From a plasmid: a DNA stretch of 64,000 nucleotides. The position numbers were made by a program. Positions within the stretch are counted from its first letter, which is position 1; the number at the start of each line of letters is the position of its first letter. Location of the stretch: the sequence record NZ_CP118918.1; one strand, 5' to 3'. Below are positions 15,001 to 18,000 of the stretch, piece by piece.

Positions 15001-18000
15001 CACGTTCAGCGGCGTAGGCGGGTATGCCCGAGCATCCGAGACCCACGACACGCCGCCTGTGGTAATCGTGCCGATTGCTGAAAGCGATGCAGACTGTTGC
15101 TGCCAACGAGGGCAGAACGCGCACCGTGACAGACGAGTCGCTGGCCCGTTCAATGCTGCGCTGCAGGCGTCCAAGATCGCTCTCAGCGAGGGCGAGCTCG
15201 GCGCCGACTCTTCTGTTGCAACACACGTCGAGCAGGAACCCGCTGAAGGCGTCTCGCTCAAGAACTTCGTTGAGGGCGTGCAGCGATGCATCCGCCACCG
15301 TCATGCCGGCGGCGTAGCCGTTGGAGCTCCAGTATCGTGCAGCCAGCGCCAGATGCGGATCGTCGCCAGCTTCGGGCACTTCGTCGTATACCGCGGCGGG
15401 CAGCCACACCACGCCCGCGCCTGCGGGCTTGCTGACCTGGTAGAAGGGCGTAGCGAGAGTGGTTCTAACTCCGCTGTTCCGGATGTTGCGGCCCAGGAAG
15501 TCTGGTTCGAGCGCCCCGCCCTTGTACAGCTGAGCGGTAGATATCTCGGCGTTGCTATCAATGCGTTCGACTACGCCCATCGAGACCGCGTGTTCGTACA
15601 GCTCAAAGAGGGCGCTTGCTTCGCACTGCCGCCCCAAACCCTTTCCGCGGCTGGCGACAATCACACCGTTCTTACCAATGAGGGACGCGGCCGATTGATG
15701 AGGAAATTCGCCTGAAGGGGTCCGGTAGTTCAGTTTGCCTGCGTCACGAAGGACACGCTGGACTTCATCGATGGCTGTCTTGACATCGACTGTGCGTTCC
15801 GATGAAGCCAGCGTGCCTCGCATGTCCGGGTCTCGCCTACGTCAGAGCTGCGTCGCCGACGAAGACCTCGCCGACGAATCCGCCAGCGGGGCAAAGAAGT
15901 CGGCTTCGTAGTCCTTGTCGCCGGGGGTGGCGACCGTGACGACGACGACCGGACGGACAACGCGCTCAGTTCGAGTAATTCCCATTGCTTTCTCCTAAGA
16001 AAGTGCTGTTGATAGTTCAGTGATTCCACGCGGCCACCTCCGAGGTGGCCCATGAGTATTGGGGCGGCACGCAGAAGCGCGTGGCGGTCGCTTTGAGCGC
16101 CACCGCCGCCGGGAATGCAGTTGTCCCCCGACAGCCAACTGATCGCACGAAAGTATTTGCGCCTCAACGAATTATGAGAAGTTGTGCAATAGAGCCCCCT
16201 CTGTGGGGTGCGGCATTCACCCCGTTTAGTGAGATGCCTGAAGCCGACCAATTCTTTAGGCCGACAGGCTTTTAATCACCGGGATTGATTCGCTACGACG
16301 CGCGAGGAGGCGTTACTGGCACCATGCGGTGAATCGGAAGATAGACCTGAAATCACCTTGGCCAGAACGAAACAACTGTCATGAGGCTTGCCACGAGACC
16401 CAAATTGACGTTGCTGCTCCCCTAGGCTTGAAGGGTACACAGGGTGCCTAAGCACCGCAACCAATCGAATCGAAGCAACGGTGGCCGAGAACTGAACATG
16501 TGGCGATGCGATGCTCAATCGGTGGGTTGGGCGCATTGACCCCGAGACCGGGGAGAGCGCAAACCCCGCTGAGTGTGTCCCTGACCGTCCTCGGGGGTTC
16601 CATTCGTTTAAACGTGCGTCTCGGATTTGCTGGCTAACGATGAGCAACGTCCATATGTCAAAGCAACTGTCTAACTATCTGAGACGACGCCCTGCGACTG
16701 CCTGGGGAGACCATGGACCTGCCTTTGCCGTTGCGAGCCAAGGGTTCTAACTGCGGGTACTGGGTCTGGCATATGCTCGGGATTACTGCTCGATACCGGG
16801 GCCCCGGTGGCTCCGGTCCCTTCCGGTGTTGTGGGGAAGTCCGGTGTTCTCCCGGTGGTGGGAACCGCTAACTAGGGGTGGTCCTCGTAGTGCAGCAGAA
16901 CGACGGCGGCAGGGGTTTCCACGACGTGGAACTGAGCGCTGGCGGCAGGTAGCTCCTGGGCGCAGCGCTCAGCTTCAATCCAGGTAGTCACGCAGGCGGG
17001 GCAGTCGTGGTGTGCAAGGTGGGCCAGGCTGACAAGCCATGGGGTGACAGGTGCGGGGTCGAGCATGGTGTCGAAGTGGACTGTGAGCAGCGGCAGCTGG
17101 CTGACGCTGTACGGGTGGCGGTAGAGCGCGGCGGTCCCGGTGGCCACCACAGGGTCAGCTTCGGTGTCGAAGCCAGGAATGTAGAGAGGCCTGCCGTCGG
17201 TGAGGTGGTCGAGCCGGGAGCGAGCATAGCGACCAAGCTCGGCGGCGATGACCAGCGGCGACACGGTGCGGATGCTCATAGCTCCATCCCGTTCTCGGAG
17301 CCGTGGTGGCGGCTGTGACGGGGGCGGTTGCGCTCCCACCAGGCTTGCTGTTCGGGGGTAAGGCCGTCCTTGACGGCAGCGGTGTGCTCGGCGGTGGCGT
17401 GCTCGGCCGTGGTGGTGTCCTGGGATGCTTGGCTGGGCAGGAGGGCGGTCAGGCGGGGGTCTTCGTGCCACCGGTCGCCGTAGACGGAGTGGCCGATCCA
17501 CAGCGCGATGGCGGGGGCGGCGGGCCCGGCGAGTTGTAGTGGCGGTGTGTGGTCGTCGGCGAAGGACATGGTGACTGCCCGTTGGTGGGGATCGGGATAG
17601 AACTCGGCCATTTCGCTGTACCAGAACGATGTCCACCCGCCTTGGGGGCGGCTGCACATCAGCCGCTGGTTGGTGGTCAGGACTGCGGCTTCGCGGTAGT
17701 TGGTCCATTGGGGTTGGCTGCTGCGGTCGGCCTCCCTCCGGCGGCGGTTGTTGACGACACCTTGGCCGGCCATGGCCGCAGCCATCAGAACCGGGTTGAC
17801 TATGAAGGGGGCTTGGGCGCGTTCGTAGTGCCCGTTGCCGGCGGCCAGGCGGCTGTAGGTTGCGGGGCTGCTCAGTCGCGCGACCTCGTTGGTGTTCAGG
17901 AATGGGCCGTGAACGGCCACGGTGGGGGGTTCTTTGCCTGAGCGTAGGGCGGTGGCGGTACCGACCGCGTAACTCCACCACGGATCGATTGAGGGCGATG

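Follow-up and report, generated by a model that had tools for sequence, protein, structure and literature searches.

Does a stand-alone YcaO gene on a mycobacterial plasmid come with a peptide substrate of its own, and which part of such a peptide would then be modified? The question is raised by a stretch of 64,000 nucleotides from the plasmid sequence record NZ_CP118918.1 (in the following 'the window', which denotes the whole stretch at its full length), where a 47-residue open reading frame (ORF) directly precedes a YcaO gene, and for which the initial annotation had proposed a Val-rich core peptide resembling that of bottromycin. Comparative sequence analysis marks this ORF as a genuine conserved gene under purifying selection, and its genomic context suggests that it probably encodes the precursor (that is, the substrate) peptide of a pathway to a RiPP (a peptide made by ribosomes and altered after translation), in which the YcaO protein would act together with an enzyme exhibiting an HExxH motif. 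We read the peptide as representing a putative new RiPP-type precursor family.

The 47-residue peptide (47 aa), MGITRTERVVRPVVVVTVATPGDKDYEADFFAPLADSSARSSSATQL, has its gene on the minus strand, at 15842..15985 with the stop codon counted in (ORF list). Its amino acid sequence is exactly the one quoted initially, while the coordinates given for it (15843-15986) were one base off and out of frame on either strand. The sequence 5' of the ATG, AGGAGAAAGCA, constitutes a good Shine-Dalgarno site with its AGGAG core 6 nt before the start codon, as had been claimed, and an AGGAG/GGAGG-type site is found at equal distance upstream in most peptide homologues. Likewise, the peptide gene is indeed located upstream of and close to the YcaO gene, being the first gene of the operon, with 18 nt, or six codons in the same frame, between its stop codon and the YcaO ATG. 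The designation 'unannotated', in turn, holds for the ORF track on which the initial annotation was based and not for the public records: RefSeq contains the identical protein (WP_157863545.1 / WED89819.1, 'hypothetical protein', from a Mycobacteroides chelonae plasmid), and the gene callers behind public metagenome assemblies had already called the ORF. Numerous public assemblies, among them human skin metagenomes and an assembly of Mycolicibacterium obuense, contain the exact operon. The features on which the following analysis is centered are:

15989..15997, minus strand: Shine-Dalgarno sequence AGGAGAAAG, with the AGGAG core 6 nt from the ATG of the peptide gene (read off the sequence)
15842..15985, minus strand: 47-aa peptide gene of putative precursor type (ORF list, conservation, purifying selection, RefSeq identity)
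15947..15985, minus strand: N-box, codons 1-13, MGITRTERVVRPV, near-invariant in the clade with the HExxH enzyme (alignment)
15917..15946, minus strand: variable segment, codons 14-23, VVVTVATPGD, comprising most of the Val-rich stretch and varying in length and sequence
15872..15916, minus strand: C-box, codons 24-38, KDYEADFFAPLADSS, defined by alignment invariants and seen in all three genomic contexts
15842..15871, minus strand: Ser/Ala-rich C-terminal tail ARSSSATQL plus stop codon, weakly conserved (alignments)
14516..15823, minus strand: stand-alone YcaO, 435 aa (PF02624, E = 9.6e-27)
13546..14535, minus strand: predicted divergent oxygenase of the α-ketoglutarate (αKG)-HExxH type, 329 aa (motif, fold), its start overlapping the YcaO end by 20 nt

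Is the ORF a real gene? An open frame of 47 codons carries in itself no weight, since a six-frame scan of the window (62% GC) yields 519 ORFs of at least 47 aa; it is therefore conservation that decides. In a collection of 5.8 billion proteins, 12 related YcaOs were identified at E <= 1e-3 (36-61% identity), and genomic context was recovered for ten of these as well as for two genome hits. An ORF of 43-47 aa with a Shine-Dalgarno site is located directly upstream of the YcaO gene in every related locus recovered, with YcaO identities of 39-61%, so that the conservation next to YcaO genes for which the initial annotation had advised looking is indeed observed. The peptide types are represented by the window peptide itself, MGTTRTERVVRPVNVVTLAEPGGKDYEADFLVPLAQSAMASTAKA (locus L007), MGTTRTERVVRPVVVTLAAPGDIDHEADFFVPLAESSRSRAAAKI (L016), MGGTRTERVVRPVTFSGVDEGEYEKSFFVPLSESSRRESALQDA (L018-type) and the distant type MHRHKVGFYAADREDTDIGGREQAFLVPLHCGGGGADALAAAG. 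The position before YcaO is fixed in ten loci constituting the main clade, which correspond to about five distinct sequence types, and when compared with the window, the main-clade peptides exhibit 50-70% identity, at or above the 43-61% of the corresponding YcaOs. A profile search of the whole collection with the peptide alignment retrieved eight clusters at 90% identity, all from Mycobacteriaceae or Dietzia.

The pattern of substitution is that of a protein-coding gene. Pairwise dN/dS (the ratio of nonsynonymous to synonymous substitution rates) of the peptide gene is 0.03-0.6, and for most pairs among four main-clade sequence types the N-terminal 13 codons exhibit 6-11 synonymous differences at ∼11.5 sites versus 1-2 nonsynonymous differences at ∼27.5 sites (pairs with L025 exhibit 5 nonsynonymous differences). 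The peptide frame is the sole one of six that is open in all seven homologues, and the GC contents at the three codon positions (0.64/0.53/0.77) are close to those of the neighbouring genes for YcaO and HExxH; the non-coding DNA further upstream has a flat profile in this respect and could not be aligned between the same loci and clades. It is for these reasons (purifying selection, the sole shared open frame, coding-type GC content and unalignable upstream DNA) that a mere 5' untranslated region, which the initial annotation had named as the outcome that would overturn its proposal, is excluded on evolutionary grounds. A chance ORF in the 5' untranslated region of the YcaO operon might have been considered, given that the high-GC DNA is full of open frames and that no promoter, terminator or RNA family was detected nearby which would delimit the transcript (promoter and terminator consensus scans as well as an Rfam search around the peptide ORF yielded nothing useful). 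With synonymous change near-saturated at a dN/dS well below 1, with the conserved Shine-Dalgarno site, and with the frame analysis, this explanation is effectively refuted, and we regard its probability as negligible.

Upstream of the start codon (47-65 nt; window 16032-16050) lies a GC-rich inverted repeat, perfect over 8 bp, GGCCACCT-CCG-AGGTGGCC, which may represent a regulatory or processing hairpin. It is embedded in a stretch of ∼890 nt (15986-16871) in which public gene callers predict no gene, and L016 contains a different GC-rich palindrome at a similar position upstream of its peptide gene.

How is the peptide built? The alignments reveal an N-box, a spacer of variable length and sequence, a C-box and a variable tail. 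The N-box consensus is MGxTRTERV(V/I)RPV, with Met-Gly being invariant at the N-terminus in the main clade, and the C-box consensus is [D/E]-x-E-x-x-F-[F/L]-[V/A]-P-L-x-[D/E/Q]-S, of which E27, F30 and P33 are invariant in an alignment of eight sequences and are also retained in L028. The Pro-Leu of the C-box is followed, 2-3 residues on, by a Ser, which is Cys in the distant clade. The Val-rich region, in contrast to the two boxes, reads VVVVTVATPGD, NVVTLAEPGG, VVTLAAPGD or TFSGVDEGE in the different types and is the only poorly conserved segment between the boxes; it is shorter by 2-4 residues in some lineages than in others, and only a single Thr (T17) is retained in it across the main clade. 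Hence, the Val run that had been taken for a bottromycin-like core is part of the poorly conserved segment and is missing from several homologues. The acidic DKDYEADFF segment and the Ser-rich tail had been proposed to serve in recognition: the former fares well in that the DYEADFFAPL block is conserved in a recognition-like manner, but the tail is poorly conserved. The window peptide contains no Cys, and the exclusion of thiazoline chemistry initially derived from this is correct for this peptide; oxazoline formation from the conserved Ser/Thr would nonetheless be feasible, and distant relatives do carry Cys at the Ser position.

The family occurs in three genomic contexts. (i) In 10/10 main-clade loci, the peptide, YcaO, 329-aa HExxH and exporter genes are found together, with the gene of the exporter (of the major facilitator superfamily, MFS) located downstream of the HExxH gene. 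(ii) In a chromosomal clade with YcaO only (L008, L021, L027, L031; YcaO 39-41% identical), the peptide is present but neither the HExxH nor the MFS gene is. The peptides of this clade are devoid of the N-box and of the Met-Gly start, keep E-x-x-F-L-V-P-[L/S], and contain Cys in place of Ser after the C-box block (PLHCGG, PSHYCAGG, PLQSCS). (iii) In M. abscessus, a 38%-identical HExxH homologue (P0087) is encoded without YcaO in a non-ribosomal peptide synthetase (NRPS) cluster, and is preceded by a 40-aa gene, MARQGDYRTVQPTKASASGKDLEVDFLVPIADSELAQDVV, which exhibits an N-box-like RTVQPT and a clear C-box with Ala-Asp-Ser. The N-box thus goes with the HExxH enzyme: it occurs in the main clade and in the M. 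abscessus peptide but is lacking in the YcaO-only clade. All three contexts (YcaO with HExxH, YcaO alone, and HExxH in the NRPS cluster) share the C-box plus Ser/Cys, and the residue before the C-box Ser (+2 after Pro-Leu) is Asp, Glu or Gln only where HExxH is present. Since the YcaO-only peptides keep the C-box and Cys without an N-box, the YcaO-linked element is probably C-proximal, and an N-terminal YcaO site is the less likely one. As a specificity control, 13 outgroup YcaO loci were examined, and none contains a small ORF with the C-box motif.

Two of these contexts exhibit additional neighbours. In L028, the M. abscessus peptide (5774-5896) and HExxH (6001-7014) genes are located between NRPS parts at 3666-5543 and 7057-13014 (L029 is a further instance), and the cluster encodes a condensation-domain protein, a free carrier protein, a penicillin-amidase-type hydrolase, a large NRPS and an SbmA/BacA-type ABC transporter, without YcaO; it may thus constitute a ribosomal/non-ribosomal hybrid pathway. 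The YcaO-only sister clade (L027:7001-8387; L008, L021 and L031), found for example in M. paraense with a peptide carrying Cys after the FLVPL block, shares an Asp/Glu racemase, a GT2 glycosyltransferase, a two-component system and two small proteins of unknown function as conserved neighbours.

What kind of YcaO accompanies the peptide? With 94.6 bits versus a PF02624 cutoff of 25.7, the 435-aa protein belongs to the YcaO superfamily. The motifs FE[LI]xEH, LNEVxERD and ERALLEYEQ are near-invariant in the family, and residues E74/E77, N185-E186-x-x-E189-R190 and E273-R274...E278 are invariant in 12 homologues; we take these conserved acidic motifs to be those binding ATP and Mg. Matches to the generic YcaO models of NCBIfam are weak (37 bits for TIGR03604 versus a cutoff of 219), and the NCBIfam scan provided no assignment to a curated functional subfamily. 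It is the single YcaO in the 64-kb window (tblastn), and the homologous loci likewise contain one. Neither an E1-like or RiPP recognition element (RRE) partner nor a dehydrogenase is present among the operon proteins scanned, and the enzyme is thus truly stand-alone; nor did the same scan reveal a TfuA or sulfur-transfer gene, so that the locus does not conform to the thioamide-forming YcaO-TfuA type. The C-terminal tails are short, variable and without the Pro-richness characteristic of azoline-forming YcaOs (PMC8442711). Further marks of that type are an E1-like/RRE partner, fused or separate, and in many cases a dehydrogenase; the azoline-forming type is thus not matched either. The nearest solved YcaO structures identified with the sequence profile are the archaeal thioamide-forming enzymes of M. 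kandleri (6ci7, E = 2.3e-9) and M. jannaschii (6pe3, E = 4.6e-8), which are likewise stand-alone without an E1 domain and comprise 377-385 aa; they differ, however, in that the likeness is confined to ∼120 residues of the catalytic core, and in that their substrate is the McrA protein and their reaction needs a sulfur donor. Scanning metagenomes with the YcaO profile contributed no more than two further loci, both belonging to known types.

At 27-31% identity, the nearest outgroup of stand-alone YcaOs is found in Sinosporangium, Thermopolyspora and Streptosporangium. Three of these (L012:4470-10032, L013:4779-8334, L015:6113-8404) each adjoin a NACHT/STAND NTPase of 708-763 aa, accompanied in L012 by a trypsin-endonuclease fusion. 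This looks like a defence-island pairing; a PADLOC scan, which among the outgroup YcaOs covered the L012 protein, yielded no match to a defence system.

The second modifying enzyme of the operon had been missed in the initial annotation. H190-E-x-x-H194 (H190-E-A-L-H194 in the window), H252 and R274/R275/R279 are invariant in eight homologues of the 329-aa protein. Its AlphaFold2 model (pLDDT 83, pTM 0.86) retrieved in a Foldseek search of the PDB at E <= 0.001 only ChlBH (8s5f; E = 1.6e-6, prob 1.0, TM up to 0.59) and SjiH (22ob), while classical zincin proteases matched at E > 1. With the sequence profile of the family, the HExxH...PWR region aligns with ChlH in the PDB without reaching significance (E = 0.38); the link to ChlBH is thus provided by fold and transitive matches and not by the sequence profile. 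A hidden Markov model search of 1.84 billion representatives returned 509 matches, 21 of them at E <= 1e-30, and about 25 full-length relatives, which indicates a small subfamily. All ten of the wider profile matches that were scanned match TIGR04267 (E = 3e-25 to 2e-6), with P0114, P0123, P0135 and P0140 scoring above cutoff. A metagenome scan with the HExxH profile found nothing. Judged by the modelled fold together with the motif and the transitive matches, the protein is a divergent subfamily of the αKG-HExxH oxygenases (TIGR04267).

Characterized αKG-HExxH enzymes hydroxylate Asp, His, Gln, Asn or Pro of RiPP precursors and use the precursor's N-terminal part as leader (PMC12636437; PMC13060819). 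The enzyme of the window shares with these peptide hydroxylases (ChlBH, BpmH, PflC/PosC and the nitrilobacillin enzyme; TIGR04267/IPR026337) the HExxH motif, a zincin-like fold and an adjacent short precursor. However, its partner is a YcaO, whereas theirs are radical S-adenosylmethionine (SAM), MNIO or asparagine-synthetase-like enzymes. In the P0002 lineage (L016, L017 and L030, which are independent samples), YcaO and HExxH are fused in frame to a protein of 755 aa, and this fusion along with the 20-nt gene overlap argues that the two enzymes are translationally coupled and functionally linked. The fusion genes are located at L016:1342-3609 and L017:1236-3503, and the matching 45-aa peptide type has been annotated from a Dietzia metagenome-assembled genome.

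How might peptide and enzymes then work together? The operon is ordered peptide, stand-alone YcaO, αKG/Fe HExxH oxygenase and MFS exporter, with a GNAT acetyltransferase associated. Both enzyme families act on ribosomal peptides, which follows for YcaO from Pfam and for αKG-HExxH from fold, motif and the transitive TIGR04267 links. Found together with one or the other of two unrelated families of peptide-modifying enzymes, the peptide is more easily explained as their shared substrate. The ORF also exhibits what is generically expected of RiPP precursors: it is short, co-directional with and adjacent to the enzyme genes, conserved across clusters, and composed of conserved and variable parts. 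In the mechanism that we propose, the HExxH enzyme would dock on the N-box (MGxTRTERVVRPV) as a leader-like handle and would hydroxylate, or oxidatively trim, a residue of the peptide, while YcaO would activate, at the expense of ATP, a backbone amide within or beside the C-box F-F/L-V/A-P-L-x-[D/E/Q]-S. In the simplest case, the latter step would form an azoline from the conserved Ser, or from the Cys that replaces it in the YcaO-only relatives, with other outcomes being conceivable. The MFS pump would then export the product, and the GNAT protein might acylate or otherwise tailor it, or protect the host. Provided that the peptide is a precursor, we tentatively place the main modified region in the C-proximal block rather than in the Val run, at somewhat less than even chances.

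Several findings weigh against this proposal, which we grade as probable. The operon encodes neither a protease nor a leader peptidase. Its YcaO has neither a Pro-rich C-terminus nor an E1/RRE partner, so that classical azoline formation is not assured, and the 329-aa protein itself scores 28.8 bits against TIGR04267 (E = 1.1e-6), that is, under the 40-bit cutoff. Furthermore, with about eight distinct peptide sequences, the correlations between boxes and enzymes represent few independent lineages, and T6 of the N-box as well as T17 of the variable segment are further candidate Ser/Thr sites.

In a different division of the peptide, the variable middle including the Val run would be the core, lying between an N-terminal leader and a recognition or follower box at the C-terminus, similar to cyanobactin-like or prochlorosin-like systems, whose cores are hypervariable. 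The conserved-variable-conserved layout and the retention of T17 across the main clade are what one would expect from such an arrangement. Yet a segment that shrinks by 2-4 residues between lineages while keeping one modifiable residue is a poor candidate for a core; the Asp/Glu/Gln-Ser pattern which tracks the enzymes is located outside of it, and the operon proteins scanned include no protease that could excise an internal core. We thus consider this division quite unlikely. A role other than that of a substrate, either as a conserved accessory subunit or as a regulatory upstream ORF controlling YcaO/HExxH expression, appears highly improbable to us: the family accompanies an HExxH homologue in an NRPS cluster, where a ribosomal substrate would be unexpected, and a leader protease is missing, but purifying selection acts at the amino acid level on two separate boxes, the dedicated Shine-Dalgarno site is strong, a variable middle segment is typical of substrates, and the co-occurrence with two unrelated peptide-modifying enzyme families would have to be accounted for. 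For a regulatory upstream ORF, more than 40 conserved residues would be needless.

The bottromycin-like reading with which the locus was introduced would assign the core to the N-terminal Gly and the Val-rich stretch, with a C-terminal follower recruiting YcaO and an amidine being formed from the free N-terminal amine after Met removal. There is indeed some resemblance: the bottromycin precursor (BtmD/BotA) is likewise a short Met-Gly peptide with a conserved acidic region C-terminal to a hydrophobic stretch, and its YcaOs are without E1-like, RRE or TfuA partner. A bottromycin cluster also contains an MFS-type exporter, as does the window operon. Like non-canonical YcaOs, the truly stand-alone YcaO of the window has no azoline-type Pro-rich C-terminus. 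Moreover, Met-Gly is invariant throughout the main clade, conservation of the peptide is highest over its first 13 residues (as would befit a core or a leader), and the C-box might act as follower. It is documented that YcaOs can form amidines by acting on N-terminal amines (PMC8442711; PMC7136475). On the other hand, bottromycin has an 8-residue N-terminal core ending in Cys, and its clusters encode two divergent YcaOs (for macroamidine and thiazoline), radical-SAM C-methyltransferases, an O-methyltransferase and dedicated hydrolases (PMC7136475), whereas the window locus has one YcaO, a peptide without Cys and a Val run that is not conserved. The operon genes and neighbours scanned (YcaO, HExxH, MFS, GNAT, a short-chain dehydrogenase/reductase (SDR) and a helix-turn-helix (HTH) regulator, with plasmid genes upstream) include neither a radical-SAM methyltransferase, an O-methyltransferase, an aminopeptidase, an amidohydrolase nor a P450, but they do include an αKG-HExxH enzyme, which bottromycin clusters lack. 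A bottromycin precursor is marked by a GPVVVFDC-type core at the N-terminus that ends in Cys, and its curated model is NF033414 (PMC8442711); the window peptide and five relatives matched no NCBIfam model even at E <= 10, in a library that should include NF033414. In addition, the YcaO-only peptides dispense with the Met-Gly start and the N-box and keep the C-box plus Cys. The resemblance is thus limited to a stand-alone YcaO and a short Met-Gly peptide, and with the Val run not conserved, Cys and a second YcaO missing, no tailoring gene among the genes scanned and no NCBIfam precursor model matching, we reject a bottromycin-type core as very unlikely.

Streptamidine (AmiA/AmiD; Russell et al. 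2021, PMC8442711) was considered as a further cluster type and rejected. It is alike in combining an actinobacterial YcaO with a short Cys-free precursor that is often unannotated and known by its context, and in that the chemistry of the product cannot be predicted from sequence. Its precursors, however, exhibit motifs A/B with a conserved ALV, its pathway requires AmiB (E1/RRE-like), the hydrolase AmiC and the dehydrogenase AmiE, and AmiD has a Pro-rich C-terminus (PMC8442711). ALV is present in no peptide of the family, and AmiB/AmiC/AmiE-type partners were not found among the operon proteins scanned. The accessions of the window peptide and YcaO have no match in the available part of the supplementary text of PMC8442711.

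In returning to the proposed precursor, one may speculate further that a modular precursor or scaffold family of Mycobacteriales serves in three different machines, and that the HExxH-YcaO pair of the window performs chemistry not yet seen in RiPPs. Such chemistry might consist of β-hydroxylation of the Asp/Glu/Gln (or of Phe/Pro in FFxPL), followed by YcaO-catalyzed cyclodehydration onto the new hydroxyl, or of a YcaO reaction that forms neither an azoline, a thioamide nor an amidine. We regard this extension as unlikely on present evidence; if true, it would define a new class of RiPPs that conjugative plasmids carry from one non-tuberculous mycobacterium to another. Full-text literature searches retrieved no paper on a YcaO paired with an αKG-HExxH enzyme, be it in a natural operon or as a fusion, and none on the window peptide family. 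While the operon is still RiPP-style in combining a short peptide with modifying enzymes and an exporter, the pairing of these enzymes with a Cys-free precursor appears to be new. Within a superfamily that has time and again given new peptide chemistry, no branch is less understood than the stand-alone YcaOs, and αKG-HExxH enzymes have been recognized only recently; the locus provides a defined five-gene system for learning what a partner-less YcaO does. The homologous peptide in the M. abscessus NRPS cluster hints at cross-talk of ribosomal and non-ribosomal pathways. Finally, the locus resides on mobile DNA of opportunistic mycobacteria and turns up in numerous metagenome assemblies associated with humans, so that its product might matter for the competition of these bacteria or for their interaction with the host.

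The remaining genes of the cluster and the landmarks of the element carrying it are:

12177..13469, minus strand: MFS transporter, 430 aa, likely exporter (NF037960, E = 3.8e-128)
11091..12143, plus strand: GNAT acetyltransferase, 350 aa (PF00583/PF13508), convergent with the operon
221-3717: integrases
18010-24336: further landmark region of the window
32236-33981: PPE
46511-49522: FtsK/EccC-like protein
56170-57918: mycosin
59570-61354: EccA

A GNAT homologue (42-53% identity) is found within ∼4 kb in the six loci with enough flanking sequence (L007, L016, L017, L018, L020, L023). The GNAT gene is flanked in the window by the SDR gene (10266-11018) and by the gene of a 525-aa XRE-type HTH protein (8573-10150), both of which are missing from the other main-clade loci examined, except for a weak (27%) SDR match in L023; the two genes are thus probably outside of the conserved cluster, as judged by this comparison.

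With EccA, an FtsK/EccC-like ATPase, mycosin, PPE, a ParA-like protein, integrases and a 2108-aa helicase-type protein, the window is an ESX/type VII-encoding mycobacterial conjugative plasmid or integrative element. Among the plasmids of PLSDB, neither a megablast search with the 5.3-kb operon nor a tblastn search with YcaO yielded a match. For Mycobacteroides chelonae (on a plasmid) and several Mycolicibacterium species, there are records of proteins identical to those of the operon, M. abscessus has near-identical variants, and an index of public assemblies lists this YcaO in 359 blocks, human skin metagenomes among them. This wide occurrence implies recent horizontal spread (or else a common environmental or reagent mycobacterium).

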